Assembly (NCBI GenBank): GCA_976226885.1 | Contig: OZ320322.1 | Coordinates: 23,746,001 to 23,810,000, forward strand | Reading direction: 5' to 3' | Source: Iphione sp. A-MEVVRFRX5 | Lineage: Eukaryota | DNA: 64,000 nt | Shown: positions 61-63,345 of the stretch, in pieces | Layout: every line of letters begins with the position of its first letter | How positions within the stretch are numbered: position 1 is the stretch's first letter | The notes under the pieces: model-generated | The model's input: only the letters and a program-made list of their open reading frames with translations | What the model was told of the DNA's origin: nothing | Database searches by the model: none | Position numbers and translations under genes: made by a program

Positions 61-650
61 TTACTCACAAATGTTCATCCCAACAGGTCGGTATGTACCC
101 AAAAGCCTAATCCAGGCTTCTTCTAGTCTAAGTCTGTTGTTAAGACTTCTCCGTGTGGTGTCCAAGTGTTGGGCAGTTACGTCAGCTATGGTGCATGGGT
201 GTGTATTGAAATGTGTGGCTATCAGCTTCAGTGTATTTTTCTATGAAAAATTTGTTTGTCTCGCAGATCTTTGTATCAGTGTTAAATGTGACAAGACTTG
301 GAACAGTGTTTAAGCCATTGTATTTTGTGTCGAGTGACTGTGCAAACAAAGTGAATCTTATCAGTGATACTGTTAGTGTTGACACTTGAGTATGTACAGT
401 AATATGAATTTGTATTGCACCGTATTGTTTGCTTATATAAAGATACAGGTGGTCTTGTATCTAAAGTATTGTGTTTGAGTATTTAGGCTTGATAAGCCGT
501 TTATATATGAATATGGTATGTTTCTATCAAATATTAAGTAATTGTTTGGTCATAATTTTGGGTTAAATTTTGGGATAAGCCTGTGCTAAGGATGTATAAA
601 AATATAAAAGATCTATGTTGTCATGGAAAAGTACCAGATGTAACATCTCA
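61..650 (-). mobile_element. Degenerate Penelope-like retroelement remnant (GIY-YIG endonuclease C-terminus plus RT C-terminal traces)
   Basis: Manual minus-strand translation ending at TAA 63-61 gives IATHFNTHPCTIADV...RLRLEEAWIRLLGTYRPVGMN, matching the HFN...RE..WI..L.T..P.GLN tail of Penelope GIY-YIG domains. Upstream RPPVSLYKQ resembles the PP..YRR motif after Penelope RT. The frame is broken by stops and frameshifts. Confidence 0.55.
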
Positions 651-653
651 AGT

Positions 654-775
654 ATATATGTAATATATGAATTATATCAATATATGTAGCAAAAGCACCA
701 TGGAGACCTATGTAACCTAGCAACTATAGACAACACGTCACGATTGTTCTATAACGACATAGCATCTGAAATTTT
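654..775 (+). repeat. Ngaro terminal repeat A1 (122 bp)
   Basis: Direct repeat of 4611-4732; 3 mismatches, all in the first ~36 bp. Confidence 0.92.
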
Positions 776-811
776 GAGCGCTGAAGACGTATCCTGCGCT
801 GCCGAGTGAAG

Positions 812-1645
812 ATGGAGAAATATTGTAAAAAATGCTCCGTGAAGCACCCACCACCGGTGGGGAAGAATTGCAGGAAGACTTCAGAGGTGGTTTTCGAGCA
901 TGTTAATGATGATGAAGGGAAGAAAACCCAGGGAGTTGATGTCGAGAAGCGCGTGGAGAAGATCGAGACGATGCTTCAAGCCCTGTTATCCAGTGGAACT
1001 GGCGACTTGAAGAAGAAAGGCCGAGCAGACGGTTCAAGTTCTTCTGAGAGTGACTCATCAAGTGACTCGGACTCTGATAACGAGTCTGTTCAAGGTGCCA
1101 AGAAGAAAGAGACAAAGAAAGGTAAAGAGCCTAAGAAACTGTCGATTTCCTCTTATGTAAAGAGTGGGAAGGTGGACAATTTCGAGGACTTGATCGTAGG
1201 CTCTATGGGTCTATTGAAGGCGTTGATTGCGAAGGGCAAGAAAGTTGGAGGATATATAGACCATATATCTTTCTTAGCTGATAGGGCTGCTTCAAGAATC
1301 TACACGAACGAGGCTCTTATTTCCTATGATAGGGAAATGAGGGATAAGGCCAGGAAAGAAGGACTGGACTCGTTTTGTTTCGGGGACACGGTGAATATTC
1401 ACAAGTTCCTAAGTTTGGATGCGACAGTCGATGTGGCTAGACAGAGGGATGCTAAGAAAAGGTCCAAGAAGTCATCGGGTATTTGTTTTAAATATAACAA
1501 CAGTACATGTGATGACGCGAGCTGCAAATACAAGCATGGTTGCCTCACTTGCCTCAAGATGGGGCACCGGTCTTCAGATTGTTACCAGAGTAAGTCGTCA
1601 GGTGGAGACTCTGGTAAAACCAAATCTACGTCAAAGAAGGACTGA
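812..1645 (+). CDS. Gag-like ORF1 of the Ngaro element (zinc-finger nucleic-acid-binding protein)
   Basis: ATG at 812. N-terminal C-x2-C-x3-H-x7-C, Ser/Asp/Lys-rich linker, C-terminal C-x7-C-x4-C-x3-H followed directly by a CCHC knuckle (CLTCLKMGHRSSDC). Confidence 0.85.
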   Translation: MEKYCKKCSVKHPPPVGKNCRKTSEVVFEHVNDDEGKKTQGVDVEKRVEKIETMLQALLSSGTGDLKKKGRADGSSSSESDSSSDSDSDNESVQGAKKKETKKGKEPKKLSISSYVKSGKVDNFEDLIVGSMGLLKALIAKGKKVGGYIDHISFLADRAASRIYTNEALISYDREMRDKARKEGLDSFCFGDTVNIHKFLSLDATVDVARQRDAKKRSKKSSGICFKYNNSTCDDASCKYKHGCLTCLKMGHRSSDCYQSKSSGGDSGKTKSTSKKD

Positions 1646-3676
1646 CTAGCACGTCAAAGAGACTGTGTTGTGACTACTCCAGATAATTGTGAGTTTGGTG
1701 ATAATCTTGACTCTATTGCAGGTGATTATTCACATGAGATTTCACCGTTAAACATGTCTGGGGGAATTGAGAATTTAAAGGAAGAACCAGTAAGTGATGC
1801 TGAGTGCGATGTTTGTTGTAACGCTGAAAGTAAACAACGTCGTAATATTGAGATTCGCAGTGTATTGAGGGAATATGTCAATTATTCTGAAGCTGCTGTT
1901 GATGATGTGTTCTTGTATGTTATGAGCTACAATAAGGATAGTGTTATCCCTATTAATGAAAGCTGTATTGATGGGAACTGTAACTGTGAGCACTTTCTAG
2001 GTGGAATGATAAATCCATTGAAGCCATGTAGGAACTTCATGGTTCTGAATCGTTCAAGTATGGAAGACGAGAAATTGTTGTATCTCTGGAAGGGAATTAG
2101 TCAGGGATTCGATATTGTGGATGAAAGTTGTAATACATCTTATTCTTGCCCGAATTATAAGTCCATTTTGACGAGTGAATTCAGTGAGCAGATGTCTGCT
2201 AAATTGAAAAGTGAAATTGAGTGTGGTTTTGTGAGTGAGTGTGAGAATGCCCCTCAATGTGTAAATGCTCTAGGTGGCGTACCTAAAAGTGACGGGAAGC
2301 TCAGACCGATAACAGACTGTTCGATGCCTCCTAAAAAAGCTATTAATAATTTCATGGAGACAACGCATAGAGAGTTTAAATACAAATCTGTCGATGATGT
2401 GTGTGAATTCCTTTGTGAGGGTGAGTGGATGGCAACTTGCGATATTAAGAGCGCATATCGGTCGGTGCTGGTGAATCCTGAACATAGAAAATTTCAAGGT
2501 TTCAGCTGGAAGCATGAGGGAGAGAACGAGAGGTATTACGTGAATAACTCATTATGCTTCGGATTAAAGTGTGCACCTTTCATATTCAGTCAGTTGTCTG
2601 ATATGATAGTGAGTGAATTTGAGTTCAGATGTGGTGCAAGGATAATTAATTATTTGGATGATTTTATCGTGGTTGGTGTGAGTGAGGAAGAGTGTCAGAA
2701 ATTCCAGATGATCTTGAAGGATGTAATTCAAAGTGTGGGTTTTGTGGTTTCAAAGGAAAAGTGTGCTTGTGCCTCACAAGTCTGTAAGTTCCTAGGAATT
2801 ATCATTGATTCAATTAGGATGGAGTTGAGGCTTCCAGAAGGGAAAGTGGTCGAAGTGAAAGAAAAAATAATGAGAAGTCTTGAGGTTGGCTGCTTGAGTA
2901 AAAGAGAGATGGAGAGTCTAGCAGGTCTACTTTCCCACTGTTCTACAGTGGTGAAAGGAGGGAGGACTTATACAAGGTCCTTGTATGACTGTATTAAGGT
3001 AATTGAGAGGCCACATAAAGTGGTGCCTTTGAATGAGACAGTGTTGAGTGACCTGAGATGGTGGATGAACTTTATAGAAAGTTTCAATGGAAAAAAGAGG
3101 ATTATTAGAACGAGGGAGATTGAGGCAGTAATTACTACTGATTCATCCCTTGAAGGTTTCGGAGGATGGTGTGGCTTGGACTGGTTCTATGGAGAGTGGA
3201 CCAATTCAGCAAATTTGAAGGAGGGTGAACATCATCACCTGGAGAAATGTCCCACTATGGAGGATTATGATGATCACATCAACGTCTATGAGTTATGGGC
3301 GGTTGTGGTTGCTCTGAAAAGGTGGGGGAATAGGTTGAGAGATAAGATGGTGTTAATTCGTGTCGACAACACCTCTGTCATGTATATGTTGAAGAGTGGG
3401 AGGAGCTCGAATAAATGTTGTATGAGATGGCTAAGAGAAATATTTTGGACATGTGTTTTTATGAACATTTATTTTAGAGTGGAGTATATCAGTACGGATG
3501 ATAATGTGGAGGCTGACATCTTGTCAAGACTAGGTGATGGCATGCAGTCTGTTAGGCTTGATAGCAATGAATGGGCCAAGACAGCGTGTTGCAAGAACAT
3601 GTTGTTTTCTCTTTCTAGGAAAACTCCACCAATTGAGGGTGGATGTGGAAGCCTTGAAGGAGAAGTCCTTATCTGA
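1646..3676 (+). CDS. Reverse transcriptase / RNase H (ORF2), in frame with gag after a single TGA
   Basis: RT motifs KLRPITDCS, CDIKSAYR, LCFGLKCAPFIF, YLDD, KFLGIII. RNase H motifs TTDSSLEGFGG, HINVYELWAV, RVDN, NVEADILSR. The frame is open from 1646; first ATG at 1754. Confidence 0.92.
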   Translation, partial: LARQRDCVVTTPDNCEFGDNLDSIAGDYSHEISPLNMSGGIENLKEEPVSDAECDVCCNAESKQRRNIEIRSVLREYVNYSEAAVDDVFLYVMSYNKDSVIPINESCIDGNCNCEHFLGGMINPLKPCRNFMVLNRSSMEDEKLLYLWKGISQGFDIVDESCNTSYSCPNYKSILTSEFSEQMSAKLKSEIECGFVSECENAPQCVNALGGVPKSDGKLRPITDCSMPPKKAINNFMETTHREFKYKSVDDVCEFLCEGEWMATCDIKSAYRSVLVNPEHRKFQGFSWKHEGENERYYVNNSLCFGLKCAPFIFSQLSDMIVSEFEFRCGARIINYLDDFIVVGVSEEECQKFQMILKDVIQSVGFVVSKEKCACASQVCKFLGIIIDSIRMELRLPEGKVVEVKEKIMRSLEVGCLSKREMESLAGLLSHCSTVVKGGRTYTRSLYDCIKVIERPHKVVPLNETVLSDLRWWMNFIESFNGKKRIIRTREIEAVITTDSSLEGFGGWCGLDWFYGEWTNSANLKEGEHHHLEKCPTMEDYDDHINVYELWAVVVALKRWGNRLRDKMVLIRVDNTSVMYMLKSGRSSNKCCMRWLREIFWTCVFMNIYFRVEYISTDDNVEADILSRLGDGMQSVRLDSNEWAKTACCKNMLFSLSRKTPPIEGGCGSLEGEVLI

Positions 3677-4556
3677 GAACTCCAGGAAGTGCCGTTCAAT
3701 GCAGCTAAAGAAATACGAAGATTTTTGTAGTTATTTTGAGTTGTGAGCTTTTCCATGCAGTAATTATCAAGCGTGTTTATACACTGCCTTTCTAGGTAGG
3801 AGCATGTGTTTTAGCTCAATTAGGAATTATTTGTCTGGTTTAATTTATTGGTGTAGGGTTTTTGGTGTAGTCCCTCCAGATTTGAGGGATTTTGGTTTAT
3901 ATCAAGTATTGGCTGGGTTAAAACGTACTAGAGACAGAGCCCCAGTGAGAGCTCATCCATTCAGTTTGCATGATTTAGAAGTCATTTTTGACAAGCTTGA
4001 CATGTCTTGGGATCGTGATTTTGTCTTTTGGTTGGCATGTATTTTAGCTTTCAGATGTTTACTCCGCAAGGAGTCTTTCATTGCCCCGTGCGGTTTGACT
4101 TGGGGGGATATCGAATTTGTGGATTTCGGGGTATTAGTACATGTTAATAAGGGTAAAACTATCATTTCATCTAATGAAGGATTTACCATTCCACTGTTTA
4201 CGTGCCGATCTTTCAAGTTTTGTGCAGTGACATGGCTAAAAATCTGGAAAAGTAAGCAGTATGTAAATGATAGGCAATGTATTTTCTCCTATAAAAGGGG
4301 GAAAAGACTTTATGTGCTCCGTTATGCTGACTTCATGAGTAAACTTAAAGTTGTTTGTTCTAACTTGGAGATTAAAGGGAAAGTTTCTTCACACTCCTTT
4401 CGTAGGGGGGGATCTACATTTTTAGCCTCAAGGGGTATAGATATTTCAGCTATTATGAGTAGGGGCCATTGGAGCTCTGGTTGTGTTTATAGATATATTG
4501 ATGTAGATTATTTAAACATATTTAAATCTGAGAGTATTGTTATTTCTTCTCTTTGA
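3619..4556 (+). pseudogene. Tyrosine recombinase (ORF3) interrupted by one in-frame TGA at 3744-3746
   Basis: Track ORFs 3534-3746 and 3804-4556 share a frame: ...KYEDFCSYFEL*AFPCSNYQACLYTAFLGRSMCFSSIRNYLSGL... Catalytic set present: LLR, SHSFRRGG (HxxR), GHWSS, YRY. Confidence 0.85.
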
Positions 4557-4566
4557 TTGGGTTTGG

Positions 4567-4821
4567 GGCTTGCTTGTTATTCCCCAACCTGTCGTTGTGT
4601 CATTGTAGACATATATGTAATATAAGAATTATATCAGTATATGTCGCAAAAGCACCATGGAGACCTATGTAACCTAGCAACTATAGACAACACGTCACGA
4701 TTGTTCTATAACGACATAGCATCTGAAATTTTTATCTTTTATTATATTGACTGTGATATTGTAATAAAGGCTTGCTTGTTATTCCCCAACCTGTCGTTGT
4801 GTCATTGTAGACATATATGTA
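4567..4821 (+). repeat. Ngaro right-end repeats B1-A2-spacer-B2
   Basis: B1 4567-4619 is identical to B2 4769-4821 (53 bp; its last 9 bp are shared with the start of A). A2 is 4611-4732. Confidence 0.92.
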
Positions 4822-4988
4822 TATATGTTCTGAGCATCATATGGAAATCTCCTGTCAAGGCGAATTTGAAAGCTCAATAAAATTGTTGAAATCTGAAAAA
4901 CTGAAATCTGACTTTATGAGACCCTGGATGCCAGGCACTAGTGATGTCATGATACTAAAAGACTTTACGACTCATTATGTTTGTGACA

Positions 4989-5391: not shown

Positions 5392-5548
5392 GTGACTATG
5401 GTTAGAGAATATGGCCTGGTTTCCTTGCATGCGGTGAGGTCCGTGAGTGATTCTGTGTGGTTCTGAGTGTTTTTTTCTACTTGGACAGGCACTGTCTATC
5501 ATGTGATCATATGATATGAAATTTTCAAATTTGCGTATCATTTGTATA

Positions 5549-5655
5549 AAAAAACTCGTCAATTACACAGATTTAGGTGAAATTTCCTTCAAATCAGCAT
5601 AAAAAACTTGTCATTTACACAGATTTGGGTGGAATTCCTTCCGATGAGCAAGACA
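5549..5655 (+). repeat. Two units of a ~51-bp minisatellite (same family as 42841-43220)
   Basis: Unit aaaaact..catttacacagatttgggtggaattcctt..gatcagca. Confidence 0.7.
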
Positions 5656-5747: not shown

Positions 5748-5849
5748 GATACACCAGTGTAAAAGTGGTACAAATTATGCAACTCTTTTTCAGAAATCGA
5801 TACACCAGTGTAAAAGTGGTACAAATTATGCAACTCTTTTTCAGAAATC
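5748..5849 (+). repeat. Perfect 51-bp tandem duplication
   Basis: gatacaccagtgtaaaagtggtacaaattatgcaactctttttcagaaatc at 5748 and 5799, followed by a degenerate partial third unit. Confidence 0.9.
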
Positions 5850-23300: not shown

Positions 23301-26300
23301 CACTCAGGCCAATAAACTGACCTGCAGAGGTAGCTTATCTATGGAGAGCTGCTCCATCTGTCCGCTGAGCTCCTCAGTGTTGAGGGCCTGGAGGTGTGTG
23401 GTGAGTAGGTCGAGATGTCCAGTACATATGCCGCGCCTATGTTGGGACCTCCCCAGGCCAGCAGGGATCTCGATAACGTTAAAGACGAAGTCAACTTCAT
23501 CTGCGTTTGCTGTGGGTGAACTGTGTGCGAAAGGAAACAATCCAACGTTGGGTTCGTGTCAGGGGCATGCAGCTTTTGCTTATCGTGAAAACAAAATAGT
23601 TTCCTCCATGATGAATTCACGAAGATGCCAATGTTGTTTCTAATCTATGATAAAAGACCGATATTAAACTAAATATTAAATGGATAAGGCACAGAGTAAC
23701 CCTTATTTACCTTGCGGCTGAGTAAGGCCGTGGCTGAAGTCTTGGTAAATGCTCTGAAATGGGACATGAGTTGTAAATCAGTGCCTGATCAAAAACCCTC
23801 TGGAAATTAAGAGCCTAAGGGCATTGCTGTGACCTGGAAGTTAACGTGCTTTAAATGATACGGCTCGCAATCCATAGCACCTCCATGGTTCTTGAAGTAC
23901 ATGTAATTTGACTGAACAGCTTAACCTAATAAAAAGTGGATGACATATTTTTCAATTAAGTAAAGAGTTGTGGCCTAGCAATGTTACGACTAGGCAAAGT
24001 AGACATCAGAATTCATGAAAAAAAAAATCCAATTTCCGCCTATTTCCAACGGTAGCGTATTTTTCTCTACATTGCCGAAATAACCTGGCCAGAGGCGGCT
24101 GATAAGAAGGGATTACCATAGAACAATCTAATGACAATTTTCCTGATAAAAGCTGCATATCTGTTGAGTCTATAAAACTCTTGCTATTTCAAACAGTATC
24201 AGACTGCTCTCTGTTTTTACCTAAAAGCCTGGCGAATGGTGGCTGACAGGAAGGGAAGGCCATAAGGAGATCCAGTAGGGAGATGCCAACTTCCCTGATA
24301 TAACTTGCATAGCTCTCAGCCCCTTGCTTACTGCAGAGCTCTTGCAGGCGCCGCTTCTCCTCTGGTGAAGCACAATGCTCCACTAGACACCTCAGTAAAG
24401 CCTGTAAGGACAACAACCCTGAACAGTGGAAGCATATATCTTGCAAACTACACCAAAGCTACGCATTTTTTTTAAATGCCATAGTAGTACATGTATTCCA
24501 AAATGATGCCAAGATTCTTCCTTATCAAGATGAATGAAAATAAACGTTATTTAACATACTCTGCAATGCTGCTTTCCATTGGAAGCCAGGGGTAGTTTTA
24601 TGGACCTGTTGGAACAAGGATGATATATGTATATCATCTGTTTCTTGAGGAGACTCTCACTGTTTCGTACCTTCTTTGGTGCAGCCCTGATATCACAGCA
24701 GTGCAGTAGTGCATCACGTATTGTGCCCGAGGACGGAATGTGAGCAGGAACAGCAGCGTTCCGCTTCTTTGTACCTGGGATTACTTCAAGTGTGTACAGC
24801 TGATCACATACATCGGACAACCCAAGCCTGCAGTAGGAGAATATACTGCATGATGAAGATAAGGGAAATACTTAAAACAGAGACATAAGTGGCAATTCAA
24901 TAACATTGCATTTATCACACAAGGCTTACAAGAAACAAGGGAAGGACCTATGAGATCTATTGTCCCCAAAAAGCCATTCAGTCAAGTGGAACTTGTTAGT
25001 TCTACATGGATGAGCAGATTAGAAGATAGTTTCATGCTTTGAAATCTACAAACTGCCGTTTTGTGTGCATCTGTGTCTGCAACTACATATTAAACACATT
25101 AATATTACCAGTTACTCGGAATTACTATAATATGAGTCAGTGGCAAGAGACCGTATGGGCAACACCTTAGTAAAAATCAGAGCATTTGAAGAACTAGTTA
25201 AGGGGGAAATAGACCCACAAAACCATGACAGAGGATCGGACAGTCCCCGACAGTAGTATCTAGCGTCCTCCCCCACCTCTATGAAGTGGGGGACAAAATT
25301 ATATCTGTCACAACATGAAAAGACTTGTGAACAAGATCAGCTCTGAGCAGAAGCTAAGTTACCAAATGAATTGTATGTGGCATCTTATCATATGGAGCAA
25401 ATGAGCCACCGACATTACCTATTCGTACCTATATGTCTTTTAATTTTATGTTTGGAATAGTGATAAACGGCTGTTTTGTGTAGTGTGCAGAGGAGAGAAG
25501 AAACATGCTTACCTTTGGATCAAAGTTTCCACTTCATCACGTGGGTTTGGGCATATGATTCCAAACGAATCACCGGGGCCCCAGTCCCAGGAAAGATTCT
25601 AGAACAATTGAGAAAGTTATGGGTTACCCTATGATTTGTCAAACACGAATGAAAAGAGAATGATCAATATGCTCTCATCCTATTTTCAGTGTATGAGAAA
25701 TGATTCGTCACACTTTGCGGTAAATGTACCCAATGCATCATGAGCCATGGGTGCCAATGACTACTCGTTCTATCTGAATACAGGAGAACCTCACCCTGCG
25801 ACCATTTGCCTAGGGCGACCAGTCGGCCAGTGCGACCAGTTTTACTAAGAACGAACCAAATTTTAGTACATTTGCTATATGATACACTTCGCCCAGGGCA
25901 ACCACTGGCTTGGGCGACCATTCGCCCATTAAGACCACCATTTTAAGAACAAAAACTAAGATTTTAAGGTGCCTAGGGCGACCACAGGCCATGATACAAA
26001 AAAAACACTTCTTTTCCCCATAATATTAAGTTAATTTAGACTTCTTTTCCCCATAATATTCAGTTAATTTGGACTCTTTCCCCATAATATTCAGTTTATT
26101 TGGAGATTTTCCCCATGATATTCAGTTAATTTGGACTTTTTCCCCATAATATTCAGTTAATTTGGACTTTTCCCCCATAATATTCAGTTAATTTGGAGTT
26201 TTACCCCATAATATTCAGTTAATTTGGAGTTTTACCCCATAATATTCAGTTAATTTAGACTTCCTTTCCCCATAATATTCCCCATAGAGAGGGAGACAGA

Positions 26301-29300
26301 GAGAGGGGCATAGAGAGAGAGGGAGACACCCAATGCCTTAGGCGACCAGTTGCCTAATGTGACCACTTCAGCTCAGTCCCTTAGGTGGTCACATTAGGCG
26401 GGTTCTCCTGTAATTCCTCTATTTAGACTATCTATGTTCCTCAGCATCAGTTTTGGTATTATTTTACTGATTTGGAACATTATTTCTCTTTGACAGCAGG
26501 GAATACCCGTTTTAAAACGATATTTTTTCTTAAGGTATCATGTAAATATTTTGAGAAGGTGCATCTTTCTTTCCGTGTAAGTAAAATTTTAAAATACGGT
26601 GTCTACCTCTATCTTTGTGTTTGTGAGTGAGAGTAAGTGTATGTGTGTGCAAATGTGTGTGAGCTGTTTGGGCGACGGTATGTGTATTGGTGTAGGTGTT
26701 ATTGAAACCCATCACACTTACCTTGACCTGTAATGTCAACTTGAGCGTCTTCTTCACAGCATTGTCCTGGGTCAACTGGACAGCTCGAGTGATGGTTGCC
26801 ATGGTGACAGATGTCTTAGCTGATGGGAAAGGGCTGCCATTTTGTAGATATGACTGTGACTGTTCCGCAATGGCTTTCTTTGGACCAAAATTAAATAGAG
26901 ATTTTCTTTAGATATCACGAACCCTTTACTGAAAGCATTAATATATACTACCTCTCCTTGAAACATATGGTGATGAGCAACAAAATCAAAAGGATTTCCA
27001 CCGGTTCTTATGACCAAATAGCGTCACCAGCCTCAAACCAGAGACACCTCCACTTACTAGGGCGAACATTGCGAGAAGGAAGGCAGGCATATTACGCCAC
27101 AATATACACGACTTTTACTGCGTATGCACATTCCAAGGCTCAGGAAAACTTGCCAAAGGATATGGAATTAGTGTGGAGAAAGCTTTACAACCCCACTCGC
27201 TGATAACGTCGCTTATTGTATATGAAAACCATATGGAAACAGAGGAAAATAAAATCTCTTCTTTTTTCTTATAAAATTCCCTCGGCTCACATGGCAAATA
27301 TCAACCAAGCTGTGAAAGAAAAACATGTGTTATTTTACCTTACTACTGTCAATGTCAAAGGTGATGCTGAGATAGGCGGCTGGGAGTACCGGTAGAGTGA
27401 GTGCGCTCTCGGCGAGAGCTCCACATGACCGAACCAGTGTCTCCCCCTGGGAGTCTCCAGTATCTCCTTCTCCTGCTGACTGTTCTTCACTAGTGCCCTG
27501 ACTAGGTGAAGACATGCTGCCTGAAACTGCATCAACGGGACAATTTTTCTGCTCAGTTACGGCTCCACGGGCTGGACTTGACCGAGTCTGCGTGAGATCA
27601 TCAGAACCTTGCGGTAATGGTGTCTTCATACCCACGGTTGGTTTCCTATTGGTCATTTCAGCACTACTGTCTGTTTGTTCGAGTTTAATCTGGTCGACCT
27701 GATCAGTCTCTCCAGTGTATATATTCCTGTCACCTCCACTGAGTTCTCCACTATGACCAACAGCAGAATCTGGCCGCTCCCCGGGAATACTGTCACTGAT
27801 CACTTGGCCACCCACAGGGATACTGTTATTGCCACAGTTCTCGCCACCACCGCTGTCGATGGCATCATTCGACACTGCATCGGTGCTTGCCATGGCGTCA
27901 GTATCCTGCTCGACCAGTTCTTTCCTGAGTACAGGCCACAAGCCCTCGATCCAAGGTTCAACAGCTACTTCTAAACTATAAAAAAAGAAAAATATACAGT
28001 GAGAGTAGTGCATGTAAACAGATTCGCTGCTACCTATTGCTGAGCCGAACGTAGATATTTCGTATGCTGTCTTCTATGGTGCCACCTATACTATTCTTAG
28101 GTAGATGCCTATGGTGCAATAGTAGTTTTAAACTGCAATGATTAAGTGGTATACGAATGCATTCTCGTGTTTGCGGTAGATATATTAGGTTCTCATCGAA
28201 CTGAACGTACCCGACAGCGTCGTCCGCCCAAGCAGGGTCATAAAAGGCGACCGCACCAAGGTCACTCAGCCGACGATAGAAAGTCTTGCCACAGTTACAG
28301 AAGTTGGCGTAATTGGAGTCACCCAGACCTGCCGTTTGAAGGTGAGAGAATGACTGCTAGACGTGGCAAAGGTACTACTCCCAGTGATACTCCCCCCCCC
28401 CTCCAAAAAAAATGAACGTGAGGGAATGAATGAGGTTGGTGTCATTAAGAACGTTAAATAAACCAACTATCTACAAGAGAATTTAAACAACAGAATAGTT
28501 CGAACCAGTTCAAATCGTCATAATATGGATAATCTGTAATAAGATAAAGGCGAGGGCAGGATTCGAGCTTAACATTCATCCAGTGACTCAATGGTCAGCT
28601 TATTTTAGTGTTAGTCAACTATTTTCACCAATATCAAAACAATGCTGAACCAGACGGAAAACCTGTTTTCGGAAGTCGTCTATCTTTACTTGAAAGTACT
28701 TGGGTGAAAGTACGTGGGGTCTGCTCTTTTAATCTGTCCCTCTCATCTGTCCTCTTTCTTTCCTTCCGGGTCGACAACCTCGGTCTGGGTCAGACCAATT
28801 ATAAAGTGATTCACCCAGCCGATGACTGACTGACCCAGAAGGTCAACTTTAAATAAAAGTCACGGTCACACCCAGGCCGGGGGGGGGGGAGTATCTGACC
28901 CAATACTACCGAGCACACGAAAAAAATCCCACGGCGCTTCCCTCTCACTCAGTTCCATCAATGCTGCGGTCAATCTATGAGGATCTGACCCTATGCATGC
29001 GCATGTTGCCTCACGCACGTGCTGAATGCGGCAATGTGTAGGATGCGTCACCTACAACGTATACCCGCATGCCTGCATACTGGGTACCTCATTATGCAAG
29101 TATACAGTTTGCATTCTCCTTATAGANNNNNNNNNNNNNNNNNNNNNNNNNNNNNNNNNNNNNNNNNNNNNNNNNNNNNNNNNNNNNNNNNNNNNNNNNN
29201 NNNNNNNNNNNNNNNNNNNNNNNNNNNNNNNNNNNNNNNNNNNNNNNNNNNNNNNNNNNNNGGTGGAGTGGAAAACAGAGTATATACATATATATGTCAA

Positions 29301-31255
29301 AACGCATTGTAAACATTCGTGCTTCTTATAACTACCTACGGCAAGGTATTCATGTGGACTGAAAGACAACTCTTCTTTCTCAAATAAACACTTCACGCTA
29401 GAAATAATTAGGACGGACAAACCTGAAGAGGAAAGGGGGAACAAGAAAATTGCAGAGTTGATCGATAAATGTCTTCCACATCTCTGACTGTGGTAATATG
29501 CGACCTTAAGTGTAAGGGTACCTCAGATTGGGTGTGTTTTGTTTTGATTCTGCTTTTATAAATGAGTATGTCAACTGCATATAGATGTATATAATCTAGT
29601 GAAAGTACGACAGATTGCTGCAAGTGGCCCCCACTGGTGTGGTACTGCAGTACTGCCACCTGAAGCTGTGACTCACCTAGTAGTGCGAACCTCAGACCCG
29701 TTAGGAGGTCGGGCGGGTGGGTCTTCCTCTTGAGCCGCCTCCAAAACTTGTGGCCCGTGTCGGGAACGTCGCCGTCGCCCGTCGTCGACGTGATAATGAC
29801 GGCGTGCCGCTCGCGCTCCAGCCAGAACTGGAAGGTGCGATATGTAACACTTGAGAGGGCGCCCGCGGGAGGCGAACGGTCGGTGAAATCTCGGGTGGCG
29901 CCCCCTGGGGGATCACGTCCTAACTAGCGCATAAATCAAGCGTGGTTCTGCACGTATGTAGTATGAGGGCACGAGTATACACCTCCCCTAACGAAGTAGA
30001 TGTGGTTGGATATACCACTTCGTTATGACAAACTTCGTTAACGTTGACATAATTTATTACAATTGACAATTTGTTAGGATTGAAGACCCAGGCTACGTGA
30101 GAACCGAGACTATAATTATGATACGGTTAACTGTAATTCTTTTTAGATAGGAGCTTCATTTTCATCAGATTTATTAAGATAGATATACAGTTGAAAGAGA
30201 AATATACAGCTGAATGCTAAGCACTACGCGACGATCCCTCCATTCCAAGCTCAAGTGGTAACATTAGGGGTTTTGGTCGCATAGTGGTCTGTTATGGAAA
30301 CAGGCGAATTTGACAAGTAAAAAAGTCCAAAAGCATAGAATTTGATTATACAAGTTCTATGAGGAACCAATTTGATGATTAAAATTCCAAAAAGCAATGG
30401 ATTTGATGAGTAATCGTAGAAAAAAGGCAAATTTGATGAGTAAAAGTCCCAAAAGCCATGGACCTAATAACTAAAAGTGGATTTTCTCTCAGCATGGACA
30501 TCTGAGATATCACACTATCAGCTCTGGTCACATGATTGACAAAGAATAACACTTCAACACTTTGGGCTTGGACATCTGCGATGTCATGCGAACACCTCTA
30601 GCAATATAAACCTGCCAATTTGTGGTCTAAACCTGCTGATTTGCGTTCTAAATCTGCCAATTTGGCCCTAAATAGTGTGGTTGCATGACTTCTGAGGTGG
30701 CGCTCTCACACTTTCACCCGTAAAGTGTTACTCAAATCCAACAGACACAACCCTAAGATGTATGGTCACAGACTGGCAGTCTTGCGAGAATTTTCATACC
30801 TATGTTAACAGAGGTGAATACAATGTATTTCTGTTCCAAGCTCATATAGTCATACAGACGGTTTTCGACCCATTCCTGTATGATTGCCTAGTGGCATTCG
30901 ACTCTGTGTTGACCTGATAGCTTTGTCAGTACGTACGCTTCAAAGAGAAATTCATTTCTGCTGTAGCCATACACGTATTCAAATATTCACTAGTCCACCG
31001 AGGTTTTCTTTAACCCATGTACAACGTCGTTTCCCTTAGCCTGGCCATGCGGGTGGAGACGACCCTGTTATAGCCCTGAATGAATTGATGCACCCCGTGT
31101 CTGGCACCCACCCGCTTCTCTGTATTACTGATACAGTGCAGGTCGGCGTGGAGGCCGTGGGAGGGCGCCTGTTCGGCTATCTCTTCAGCAATAGCCTGGG
31201 CTTGACCGGTCTGCGAGCTGTAGACGAGTAGAAACCGCGGGGCTTCGGTAGGCAT
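20310..31255 (-). CDS. MTRR: Methionine synthase reductase (diflavin FMN/FAD/NADPH oxidoreductase), 14 coding exons, ~799 aa
   Basis: Exons 31255-31112, 29827-29677, 28328-28211, 27975-27339, ~26877-26722, 25598-25513, 24827-24671, 24401-24221, 23753-23711, 23520-23322, 22729-22611, 21821-21726, 21244-21012, 20389-20310; total 2400 nt, in frame. Motifs [59 protein letters not shown]-terminal EDVWT. Confidence 0.95.
21441..21620. repeat. GA/GACA-rich low-complexity microsatellite tract (MTRR intron)
   Basis: gagagagagacagagagaga-type runs. Confidence 0.8.
26009..26285. repeat. ~31-bp tandem minisatellite, about 8-9 units
   Basis: Unit ttttccccataatattcagttaatttggac repeated head to tail without spacers. 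Confidence 0.92.
26352..26399. repeat. Perfect 15-bp inverted repeat (hairpin or MITE remnant)
   Basis: gcctaatgtgaccac (26352-26366) and gtggtcacattaggc (26385-26399), 18-nt loop. Confidence 0.7.
29127..29261. other. Assembly gap (135 N)
   Basis: Run of N. Confidence 0.99.
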
Positions 31256-41144: not shown

Positions 41145-44100
41145 ATGGATGAGGTAGGGTAATGATATTTTTCAAATGCGTTTGCATTTATATACTTGAT
41201 ATATCAATGTTTTCACAGTTATATGGTATCACTGACTATATGCGGCCAGCAAAATATCAATAACTACTGCCTCAGATTGTTGTTTACATAACTGATTTTT
41301 TTCCCCATTTTTTCAAGTTGAAACGCTGAACACTGTCACTTGCATCTCATATATTTGACATGTGAACCGTTGGTTACAAATACGCATAAGATATGTATAT
41401 AATGTTATCAGTTGAAATAAAGAATCATAATGATTCATGTGAAAACTCGTGATTCAGATTCCAAAGTGGATGTTTACTTGTTGAACTTGAAGGCAAGACA
41501 ATGACTGAAGAGTTACCCGCACCTCACACTTATCTGCACAACCATGCCTTCATGTCACACTCATCCACACACTCAGCCCCTCACATGCCCCACACTCGCC
41601 CTGCCCCACATGAAGTGCACTCACACTGCCGCACACGTGGGCCACCATGATGGAAGGGAGAGAGTTCTGTCGAAATGTACCATTATACCAAAACACTAGG
41701 CAGGGTACATAGTGAGACGGTGTCTACACAATGAGATAACACTAATGCACCAAAACAGTGGGCAGGTAATAGTGAGACGGTGTCTAGACAGATAGTGCTG
41801 GATATTTTCAGATTTTCCCAAGAGTTGACTTTTTCTGACATTCACTCAGTAAGACAAGACTGCGTATCAAATATAGAGTTGCATCCAAGCATCTGATTCT
41901 AAGGAGTTTAGATGCCGTAAAGTGGGGCTACTTTGCTTGTGTGGGGCTACTTTGTGGGGTAGTGAAAAAAGTGTTGTTTTTAGATGCCGAGCATCAGAAA
42001 TATAATTTTCATATAGAAATTTCATTGTATACAAAAATGAAACATCTAAGCTTTATGTTTCAACCATTTTTATTTTTCGAGGTCAACTGAGGTCATCTCC
42101 CGATACATGCTAGAAAATGATCCTTTTTTTTACCTATTTTTTTGTGTGTCAAATTGTCTACATAGATTCTACATTGCTGTAGGCAGCAGGAGATTCATGC
42201 CCACCACTAGCATCACTGTTGGCTTTAGACCTTAGAACTATATGGGCAAAATGATGTTCCTACCACTGAGTGAAATATTTAACAGAATGCAAATGCATGT
42301 CAATTTTTTTTTTACAAAAATGGGGCTACTTTGTGGCCAAAAATGCCATAGGGGCTACTTTGGTGATTTTTTTCTATTGTGATAGTTTATTTCACATAAA
42401 CGACGATGGCTTTAAAAACATATGGCAGATCAAAGTGGTGACAATGAGATTCTACAGTCTAGATATAGATGATATGGAAGCTATATATTATAACTGCTCT
42501 TGTTCAAGGTCATCTATGGATTTTTCAAGGTCATGTAATAAAGAATGATATATTTTAAATGTACAAAGTACATAGACCCTATATTCTTCAATACAGTTCA
42601 TCGCTAAAGCACAGAAAAGTGGATGCACATGATCGTTCCCCCCAAAATTTAGACCCCCCTATTCAAGAATTTTGAGAGCAATTTAATCCCCCTATTTGCA
42701 TGAAAACATGAATTTTTGGCCCTCCAAATACCCCCCTTTTTCAAGATTTCAAGAATAAATTCTTCCTTTCTATTTCCATATACAGAATATGAGCCCTTAG
42801 AATACCCCCCTTTTTCTCATTTGTATATCATTTGCATTAAAAAAAAACTCATCATTTACACAGATTTGGATGGAATATTTCCGATCAGCATATAAAAACT
42901 CACCATTTACACAGATTTGGGTGGAATTCCTTACAGTTAGCACAAAAAACTCACTATTTATACAGATTTTGGTAGAATTCCTTATGATCAGCACCAAAAA
43001 ACTCACCATTTACACAGATTTGGGCGGAATTCCTTACAGTCAGCACAAAAAACTCACTATTTATACAGATTTGGGTAGAATTCCTTATGATCAGTGCCAA
43101 AAAACTCACCATTTACACAGATTTGGGTGAAATTTCTTCCAATCAGTGCAAAAAGCTCGCCATTTACACAGATTCAGGGGGATTCCTCCTGATCAGCACA
43201 AAAAAATTGTCATTTACACAGAGAGAGAGAGACAGAGACAGAGAGAGGGAGACAGAGTGTGTGAGAGTGAGTGTGTGTGTTAAAGAGGGAGAGAGANNNN
43301 NNNNNNNNNNNNNNNNNNNNNNNNNNNNNNNNNNNNNNNNNNNNNNNNNNNNNNNNNNNNNNNNNNNNNNNNNNNNNNNNNNNNNNNNNNNNNNNNNNNN
43401 NNNNNNNNNNNNNNNNNNNNNNNNNNNNNNNNNNNNNNNNNNNNNNNNNNNNNNNNNNNNNNNNNNNNNNNNNNNNNNNNNNNNNNNNNNNNNNAATGAG
43501 TGTGTGTGTGAGAGAGATAGAGAGAGAGAGAGAGAGGAACCCCCCCCCCCTATTTGAGTGAAAATGCGAATTCTTTTCCATCTGACACCCCCCTTTTTAA
43601 AGATTCCAAGAAATGCGTTCAGACTTGAATATGACCCCCTATTTTCACGAAATATGGAACGATCATGCGGTCCCTTTCCAAGTACAGTGCCGGGACTGGG
43701 TCTCAGGCCCCCCCAAAAAATAGACCTGTTTTAACGACCAGCCAAAAACCTAGGTAGGGAGGGGGGTATCTTTTTTTTAAAAATTTTTTTCCCACTTTCT
43801 TCCTTTTATTTTCAATAATAATAAAGACAATATGAAGAATTTTGACCAATTTACATGAGGTTTACAGTTTTTTGTTGAATTTCCATGGATTTTGTTTTTC
43901 TACTGAATTTACCAAAAATATGCATTGTGAAAACACATACCTAGGGATATTCAACCTTGGAAACTCTTTGGGGCTAAAATTTTTTTAGGTAGGGTGAGGT
44001 TTTACTAGGTAGGGGTGGGTTACCAGAAACTCACCTATTTTGGGGGAGCCTCAGCATCATATTGCATATCTGGAGCCTATTAAGCTGCATTTTGCTTGCA

Positions 44101-60627: not shown

Positions 60628-63345
60628 GTTGCAAAGTGGTGTGCTGTTCAGTGCTAGGTTAAGTAAACTAGAGAGGAGAGGTTGCTAGCACGTCACTCTC
60701 AATCAGTGAATCTTTACCATTCACTTCCCTAACTAGCACATATGACAGCAGCAGAAATTGTGGATAATATTGTCACACATATAACACAATGGCAAGAATG
60801 CAGCAGTGAATATAACCTCAAGAGTGATATGGTGTAGTCCACAGTATACAGAAATATCATGCATATTCATACACAATACTCTGCATGCAATACACAGTAA
60901 TAAACAGGTTGAAATTCACATAGCATATAATATACAAAACAGGCTGCATACAGAATACTCAAGTTTGTCTGGCAAATGTAGTACAAGATACACAAAAATG
61001 TATACACTAGTAATAAACCTGTTACAGTGGAAAATCACCAGAAATGTTGTCAAGTGAGTATACTCAATATAGGACTGTAGGCTCTTAAATGTCACTCACA
61101 ATGTCAGTGTTGTCAGTTTCAACCTATGTCAGCAGATCAAAACAAGATAAGAGTAGATGTCCTATAGGTACCTTGAAATGTTCATACAGGTGTCACAAGA
61201 CTAAAATGTTCATGTACTTGCCACTGTTGTTGAGATTTATCCTTGCAACATGTCACAAACTTAGTCCTCCTAGTGCACAGTTAAGATGGCTGCCATGTGG
61301 TTTTGGTGGTTGACAGGGTGTCCAGTTTAAAATTGACCTCCAGAAGTGTAATTCCTTGTATGTCCTCCTTTTAGTGAGTCCTGTGTGTTCTTGATCCCTT
61401 ATTCTGACACCATGTTGTATTTTGAAAGATGGATGGTTACTTTGTCATGTAGATTTATGATGATATAAATCAGGAGTAACTCAAGCCATGTGTGTGAGGA
61501 GTTCAGGAAAGAGGAAGTAGTTTTATTTCCTAGTTACTTGGTTTAACACAGGTGGCAGCAGTGTGTAAGTAAATACATATCATGACACCCACATAGAAAA
61601 ATCTGGCTCACTCTAAGTGCAGAATTCTGCTGGGTGTGTCTCTCAAGGTGCAGGGAGAGAGTGGTTATTCACCAAAAAACATCAGCCTTAAATATAGTGA
61701 CAGTTGAGTAACATTTATATAACACTTGTTTACTTAAGTCACAGCAGACAGTGTACAATTTCCATTCTGGCAATGATACCAGAGTACCAGATCACCGATA
61801 CCAGAACTAGATTGCTCAACCACATTCCGGAACCAAGATTTTTCTTATGATGCAATTACATTATCAACTGTAAGCTGGGGTCATTAGCTTTGTGACCTCC
61901 ACACCAAAAGGAGACAGACCTGCCTCCATTACATTACTATAGAGTATGGAATACATCTTTTTGAAAATATAGTTATTCAACTTTGTATTAAGACATCTCA
62001 GGATATAGAAAGAGCAGTTACCTAATCTTTAAACCAAGTAATGCCCCAAATGTTCTTTAGTTTTCATAATTTATGCACTGATGTACCATTTTTCCCCGGC
62101 TGGCCACATTTTTGTTTATGAGTAATCATCTGGCACATCTTTCTGCCACCTTATGAAGGTTCCTTTTACCTCCTTGCATCATTTTTACCACATCAGCCTG
62201 TAACATATTTTTTTATTCACTAGCTTCCTCAGTAGTGAAGTTCCTGCAGTCCTGCTCTACCTCCCTCCGCATTTTTATTCATGAGGAAGTAATGGTCTGG
62301 ATCCCTTGCCAAGAAAAGTCGACAGCAAGAACAAACATAAGGTGGCAGCACAATGACTAAAATTATCAAGACAAATTAAATATCAAAAAAGCCTCTAGAA
62401 ACACCCGCTTTTCTGGAAATATGCCAATTACAATCTGGCTAAAGCCAACAACCACCTTCTTCAACCTATATAACAACGCTAAACTAGAATGAAGAGAGAA
62501 GGACAAAGATGTGGCCAGAAAAAAAATATTTAAGGGGAAATGCTTTTCCGGCAAGCACAGGTCATATATCTTAGATACATTTCAAAACAAGAATCTTCAT
62601 CGGAGGATGATTTGCACCATGACAACATCCCCATGTTTGTGTGACTGTGTTTGTGTTTTTTTCTGCTTGTATTGGCCCATCATAAAAATATGTCTATTTT
62701 CAATTACACACAAGTGCCTTCAGCACTTGCATTTGTGTATGTGCGCTCAGGGGTCAAAGTACAGACTGTGTGCACAGAGTTTCTTTGGTCCTTATCTATC
62801 ATTTACAACCCTCGGTTCTGCTTGACTGGACACAAAAGTCAAGGTCATTGCTGTATTACTACAATCTATTGGAAAAGTAGTGCCAGAAATTTGCTCAGGT
62901 TTCTTTTATATTATGTTTTCTACTTTAAAATATATGATATTCTTTATTATTCTGAAAAGGATTGAAATAACCAATGAAAGAATACAAATACTAAGGTTTT
63001 AAAAGAGTCATACACATGAGACCTTCTCCCCATAGCCGGACTACTTTTGGGCGACGTTTTATATAGGTAGTGTAATAAACACACTCTTGCACACGGAGAC
63101 CCACAATTAAAGATTATCAGGCTCACTCACTGCTGTGATTGGGAAATGATCGGATTGATGAGTTAAGTCTTGTGACATCCACTGGTGAGAGGTATGATAG
63201 CTAAACTACTACATGTACATGTAATATGTGATTGACCAACTTGACCATGCATCACTCAGATCACAGTGAGGAGGATGCTTGTCACAGTTACTTTTCACCT
63301 TAAATTTGAGACAATGTCATAAAGTGCATACAGTATGCATGCCTG

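Follow-up and report, generated by a model that had tools for sequence, protein, structure and literature searches.

The 64,000-nucleotide (nt) stretch of Iphione sp. A-MEVVRFRX5 analysed here (GenBank assembly GCA_976226885.1, contig OZ320322.1, positions 23,746,001 to 23,810,000 of the forward strand; hereafter the window) contains at its start a complete-looking Ngaro-type retrotransposon of ~4.2 kb with split direct repeats, a gag-like gene, a gene for reverse transcriptase (RT) together with RNase H, and a gene for a tyrosine recombinase (YR). Its gag and RT genes share one reading frame and are separated by a single TGA, an arrangement found in 8 of 14 readable families of related elements. 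Comparison of these junctions suggests that programmed UGA readthrough is probably the route to RT in the window element, and readthrough is the one route that fits all eight in-frame families. The in-frame UGA itself is, as judged from its recurrence, a real and conserved feature of a Ngaro-type clade.

The gag-RT junction of the window element

The junction reads ...AAG GAC TGA CTA GCA CGT..., with the TGA at positions 1643-1645. The Gag-like open reading frame (ORF1; 812..1645, plus strand, 277 aa) starts at ATG 812 within a stop-to-stop frame of 286 aa (785..1645), and ORF2 (1646..3676, plus strand) begins with CTA GCA directly after the gag stop, shares the frame of gag and remains open for 676 codons. 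ATG 812 to position 3673 comprises 954 codons including the stop. The sequence and its ORFs therefore bear out the original prediction that gag ends in this TGA, that the same frame continues open to 3676 and that suppression of the stop would give a Gag-RT-RNase H fusion of ~954 residues. The TGA with the following CTAG (1643..1649, plus strand) constitutes a candidate type II readthrough site, although the 7-mer TGACTAG is not rare by itself (4 + 4 occurrences in the window among 1381 + 1356 TGA). The gag stop is located 25 residues past the zinc knuckle motif of Gag, compared with a median of 17 residues in 140 homologs (5-95% range 8-38).

In the proposed mechanism, most ribosomes would stop at the UGA and release Gag, and a near-cognate tRNA would decode the UGA in a small fraction of rounds, yielding the 954-residue fusion. 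Occasional readthrough would keep the Gag:RT ratio high and hold RT to the particle, with a signal consisting mostly of the stop and the next bases, without a conserved hairpin. The recombinase would be made from a spliced RNA (donor 1122 to acceptor 3618) that carries the first 103 Gag codons and the recombinase and skips both the stop and RT.

Junctions of related elements

Relatives were drawn from one scan of metagenome contigs, which yielded 72 loci that together with the window form 29 clusters; scans of viral contigs and of genome contigs added none. A readable gag end and RT start were present in 14 of these clusters, the remaining 15 being without a junction or too decayed. The state of each family was taken from copies with a stop-free junction, and the family of L017, L043 and L052, which carries an in-frame label in the RT tree and the folding tests, was not counted, since the frame differs among its decayed copies. 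The RT tree, which is a tree of unnamed relatives, has in-frame families on each of its three main branches, interspersed with families in which gag and RT overlap. The bases following the in-frame TGA are CTAG in the window, CTGT in L003, CCTT in L001/L002, ACGG in L006/L012, ACGT and ACAT in L044/L047, CTAA in L007, CCAG in L019/L020 and CGGG in L048. At intact junctions the distances from the stop to the anchor are 90, 102, 129, 144, 153, 159, 165 and 438 nt, all of which are multiples of three without a further stop. Furthermore, an alignment of 13 copies from three related families shows the TGA in every copy, with indels in both flanks.

The junction stop is TGA in 8/8 in-frame families versus 15/38 of the stops that end RT and YR in these loci (p 0.002 by Fisher's test; p 0.008 when counted as 6 lineages), in a comparison in which the families are related and the 38 control stops are counted by locus and not reduced to families. 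Because the window was picked for its context, it was excluded from the tests of the downstream bases. C at +4 is present in 6/8 in-frame families (5/7 without the window, p ~0.008), and CUA or CGG follows the stop in 3/8 (2/7 without the window, p ~0.007 from the codon use of each ORF).

The remaining six of the 14 readable families have other junction types, namely a +1 overlap in L005, L009, L010, L014 and L015 and a -1 overlap in the L027 family. In the +1 families the RT frame overlaps the end of gag by 59-377 nt, and RT may be reached there by a +1 shift or from an ATG of its own. In the -1 family, the gag stop of L027 lies inside an ATGA overlap with an RT-frame ATG (L027:3246-3249), which is the layout of termination-reinitiation; L021 and L034 of the same cluster are without the ATGA.

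Alternative routes to RT

RT could instead be made alone, if ribosomes reinitiate past the gag stop or a shorter RNA is translated, with translation starting at ATG 1754 in the window element and at near-cognate codons in families without a suitable ATG, which we regard as an unlikely alternative. The first in-frame ATG of ORF2 (1754..1756, plus strand, codon 37) has A at -3 and T at +4; among relatives, an ATG occurs two codons past the stop in L003 and where the conserved block begins in L019, and a usable Met of the RT frame precedes that block in 6/6 overlap families. The stop is followed by ACG in two in-frame families and by CTG in L003, both of which are near-cognate start codons. There is also a precedent in Tca2 of Candida albicans, an LTR (long terminal repeat) retrotransposon with the same junction layout, whose gag-pol junction, according to the available text of PMC2194720, holds a minor promoter and by itself gave no readthrough in S. 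cerevisiae. Against this route, 5/8 in-frame families have their first Met in the frame only within conserved RT sequence (past YxDD in L007, past RPITD in both L044 and L048, and past GFxLI and NY in L001/2 and L006/12), so that an ATG restart is excluded there and non-AUG starts would be required. Synthesis of RT alone would also leave unexplained why the frame is kept across spacers of differing length and why the stop is always TGA.

Alternative splicing from the gag donor 1122 (or the weaker 1590) to an acceptor at 1649, 1682 or 1721, all of which are in phase, would likewise remove the stop, and the TGA-C could then serve as a branch-point core. Splice signals are evidently used by these elements (see below), and two in-phase acceptors, both phase 1, score comparatively high in a model built on the elements' own recombinase acceptors: the weak candidate of the window (1697..1722, plus strand, AG end 1721, score 4.1) and L019 +78 (5.0). 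Nevertheless, no conserved in-phase acceptor was detected before RT, the best scores being -18.8, -10.1, -5.1, -2.5, -0.2, 1.1 and 1.3 in seven loci of the six other in-frame families. The candidate AG of L002 is missing from most of its aligned copies, the window candidate has no counterpart in L003, the closest locus, and 7 of the 315 AGs of the window element score at least 4.1. Nor would splicing require the gag and RT frames to match. Because the six other in-frame families have no comparable acceptor, splicing is not a general route to RT, and we consider it distinctly unlikely in the window element as well. Among the 120 listed RT homologs, none contained a Gag-knuckle or window-type leader motif, a weak argument given that these are gene-caller ORFs and that the motif is absent from all 150 listed Gag matches too.

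The TGA might also be a nonsense mutation of this copy in what was once a single Gag-RT ORF. The copy is not pristine, as its recombinase frame has a second internal TGA (3744-46), and an internal TAA interrupts a Gypsy element elsewhere in the window. A Gag profile search matched 10,688 proteins, of which 150 were listed; 143 of these were retained after seven multi-knuckle proteins had been set aside, and two of the 143 run into RT without a stop: P0134, which has Leu at the stop position, and P0154, in which the stop was lost by deletion. Both end early, after 231 and 302 aa, and the other 141 of the 143 listed matches are without RT sequence, so that, among the matches listed, the absence of the stop in relatives that would have spoken for a copy-specific mutation was encountered only in truncated proteins. 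P0207, with W both at the stop and at one other position, was taken as a gene call with TGA=W and rejected as a further fusion. Conversely, 120 listed RT homologs (478-827 aa) of the 374 found (search range 371-1183 aa) contain no Gag domain. As the listed Gag and RT homologs are, with those two exceptions, unfused and the same stop recurs in seven other families, the gag TGA is, on this comparison, not a nonsense mutation of this copy, an explanation that is already largely refuted and that we rate as very improbable.

Equally slight is the chance that the UGA is decoded as selenocysteine or that the host reads UGA as an amino acid, which would fit the occurrence of TGA in 8/8 in-frame families. 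No Rfam match at gathering score was obtained in the window, and no selenocysteine insertion sequence (SECIS) was found downstream among 7 weak Rfam matches up to E 10 in 600-4900, where Rfam models may miss divergent elements. ORF2 contains 13 TGG and 36 Cys codons and no TGA in 676, TGA ends RT and YR at their normal ends in the loci, and the gag TGA lies in a variable linker.

Evidence for and against readthrough

Several observations weigh against programmed readthrough, which is likely on comparative sequence grounds. The difference in +4 C between in-frame and overlap families (6/8 versus 1/6) is borderline (p 0.051), and the in-frame share of 8/14 is not significant alone when compared with one third (p 0.058). 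TGA is also the gag stop in 4/5 of the families with a +1 overlap and in part of the -1 family's copies, TAA occupies the junction stop site of L051, and many decayed copies do not keep the frame from gag into RT (L004, L011, L024, L029, L036, L038, L039, L040, L017 and L043). The window's own subclade is sampled by one locus only, L003, and it is this locus that has an ATG close to the stop. The acceptor of L019, and ATG 1754 and acceptor candidate 1721 in the window copy, keep the corresponding rivals alive, the two listed Gag homologs that run into RT count on the same side, and the Tca2 result, obtained in an element of a different order, serves as a warning.

The downstream sequence adds to these reservations. 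Conservation of TGA-CTAG, which had been proposed as a check, failed, the CTAG being confined to the window, with CTAA, CTG, CCT, CCA, CGG and ACG/ACA elsewhere and A at +4 in 2/8 in-frame families. Folding of the region after the stop likewise disclosed no stimulatory hairpin in the window (z -1.42 to +0.65 and -1.3 to +0.6), and a conserved downstream hairpin was not found in relatives, where only L048 of nine tested in-frame-type loci had a z below -2. In L048 (L048:2576-2680) UGA-CGG is followed by a strong stem-loop (z -2.7), and this junction is the closest match to the full alphavirus-type signal. Because the context varies beyond UGA and often C, the CTAG is best read as the form that a looser UGA-(C) signal takes in this copy. 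The suggestion that the element controls its Gag:RT ratio by programmed readthrough thus gains from the recurrence of the in-frame UGA in distant families, from spacers that are multiples of three and from the exclusion of an ATG restart in 5/8 families, and loses from the variable context and the different frame in 6/14 families.

A predicted Gag leader-recombinase intron

The window element contains a predicted phase-1 splice donor with intron start 1122 (1119..1127, plus strand), the best donor inside gag (score 4.3), and a predicted phase-1 acceptor with AG end 3618 (3601..3619, plus strand), which together with a pyrimidine tract precedes the recombinase frame and has the top score of the 315 AGs of the element under a model whose training sites include window 3618. 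Donor scores derive from an approximate matrix. The predicted intron (1122-3618, 2497 nt) would leave 103 Gag codons fused in frame with the recombinase. Donor 1122 was preferred to another candidate at 1590 for its counterparts in relatives.

Among relatives, the best AG near the recombinase start, chosen regardless of phase, is phase 1 in 18/18 loci examined, some of which belong to one family and one of which (L025) has a site that is probably a fallback. Loci that retain the stretch 500-650 nt upstream of the gag stop all have a donor-like site there, which is phase 1 in every case with an intact gag frame, the weakest examples being L007 (3.4), L009 (4.1) and the window (4.3). The pair of donor and acceptor is also found in the +1 and -1 overlap families. 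With phase-1 splice sites conserved both in gag (donor) and ahead of the recombinase (acceptor), the predicted source of the recombinase is a spliced RNA encoding the Gag leader and the recombinase. A protein search for spliced leader-YR products returned three uninformative matches, none with the Gag leader. The expression of downstream ORFs in DIRS-order elements is largely untested, and Poulter and Butler are quoted, in the available text of PMC13003380, as supposing ribosomal frameshifting for YR; the conserved phase-1 acceptor points to splicing rather than frameshifting. The original prediction had missed both this predicted splice and the internal stop in the recombinase frame.

Taken together, we give about even odds to the wider proposal that a broad Ngaro clade obtains three proteins from one transcription unit, via UGA readthrough (Gag-RT) and a conserved Gag leader-recombinase intron, with sister lineages switching between readthrough and +1/-1 overlaps. 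If true, the clade would provide a natural comparison set for the gain and loss of gag-pol recoding signals. A consequence for annotation is that ORF finders take such copies to be broken and that the starts of RT and YR are mis-called.

Structure and classification of the element

The termini of the element consist of split direct repeats A1 (654..775, left end) and A2 (4611..4732), which are 98% identical, and B1 (4567..4619) and B2 (4769..4821, right end), which are 100% identical, all on the plus strand. The resulting order A1...B1-A2-B2 is described as Ngaro-defining in the available text of 10.1101/2021.08.05.455354. As in Ngaro elements of the order DIRS, the repeats are combined with a gag-like, RT/RNase H and tyrosine recombinase ORF order, no methyltransferase domain after RNase H was matched in Pfam up to E 0.1, and YR overlaps the end of RT in the -1 frame. 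The original identification as a Ngaro tyrosine-recombinase retrotransposon is upheld by these repeats, the ORF order and the RVT_1 and Phage_integrase matches; the element is Ngaro-type by repeats and ORF order, with its RT compared to unnamed relatives only, and PAT elements also have split repeats.

ORF1 comprises an N-terminal leader, a Ser/acidic stretch, a central domain and a C-terminal Cys/His zinc knuckle (1484..1582, plus strand), and aligns with 13 related Gags in which the knuckle residues are invariant; no Pfam family scored above cut-off in ORF1. ORF2 starts with a variable acidic/Cys-rich linker followed by RT (~2279-2806; RVT_1, E 6e-22) and RNase H (~3287-3436), for which the match is weak (E 5e-4, under the curated cut-off), and it ends ~80 residues past the RNase H match. 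The best of its 374 protein homologs are ~44-46% identical. The recombinase frame (3619..4556, plus strand) matches Phage_integrase (PF00589, E 2.5e-9), and both the H-x-x-R motif and the C-terminal Tyr are present in the translation. Its internal TGA (3744-3746) is replaced by a sense residue in the relatives P0272 and P0273, and homology to relatives starts upstream of this stop, which points either to a broken recombinase in this copy or to a sequencing error at this base.

Other features of the window

The window also contains a Gypsy-like LTR retrotransposon with RT, RNase H and integrase (56320-61587), the minus-strand ORFs of which (56602-60684) are interrupted between RT and RNase H by one in-frame TAA (58387-58389) that probably arose by nonsense mutation. 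From the terminal repeats of this element (55860-55905/61413-61458 and 56320-56452/61455-61587), one LTR seems to have received an insertion of ~410 nt. At 27330-29923 on the minus strand are frames that resemble exons of a host gene; the gene has a flavodoxin domain and may be related to methionine synthase reductase. Minisatellites with units of 31 nt and ~51 nt are located at 26014-26292, 42814-43247 and 5748-5849, with the 51-nt unit also at 5532-5648, and a run of N lies near 43300-43490.

Comparison with known systems

All ORFs of the Xenopus Ngaro families are described as overlapping in the available text of 10.1101/2021.08.05.455354, unlike in the window element, where gag and RT share one frame across the UGA. 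Neither gag-RT readthrough nor recombinase splicing in DIRS-order elements was found in the literature searched, outside of which lie Poulter and Butler 2015 and Goodwin and Poulter 2004. Neither feature is described in the available portions of PMC8547959, PMC3783388, PMC6681497, PMC7192593, PMC2632668 and 10.1101/2021.08.05.455354, and PMC5009743 leaves DIRS and Ngaro unmentioned in its first 300,000 characters. UGA readthrough and the leader intron thus appear to be, as a pair, unreported for the order in this literature; the original prediction knew of no account of readthrough in DIRS-order elements, which holds within the search, and an earlier mention in the two key Ngaro papers is possible.

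The mechanism of UGA-C readthrough is itself well known. UGA-CUA and UGA-CGG constitute the type II readthrough motif (PMC3542737, available text), which is used by alphavirus replicases and, as UGA-CUAG, by OPRL1, OPRK1, AQP4 and MAPK10. The window resembles these systems in its UGA-CUA-G, as do L007 in its CUA and L048 in its CGG, and stop-free in-frame coding sequence after the stop is kept in relatives. In contrast to most viral cases, for which an extended 3' stem-loop ~8 nt after the stop is proposed, no such structure was found in the window or most relatives, L048 being the exception. UGA-CUA alone gave 1.5% readthrough in HEK-293T cells according to the accessible part of PMC4132726. 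Downstream structure is only conditionally needed for UGA-CUA, as far as the available text of PMC13517186 goes, and the absence of a hairpin in the window is therefore compatible with readthrough.

Gammaretroviral type III readthrough depends on UAG-G and a compact pseudoknot (PMC3542737, available text), whereas the window element has UGA, no such structure seen and no protease or integrase. What both would share is the formation of a Gag-RT fusion by suppression of the gag stop, and a conserved leaky UGA in these Ngaro-type elements, if true, would make theirs the third retroelement order to produce Gag-Pol by readthrough, with short signals that have no obvious hairpin.

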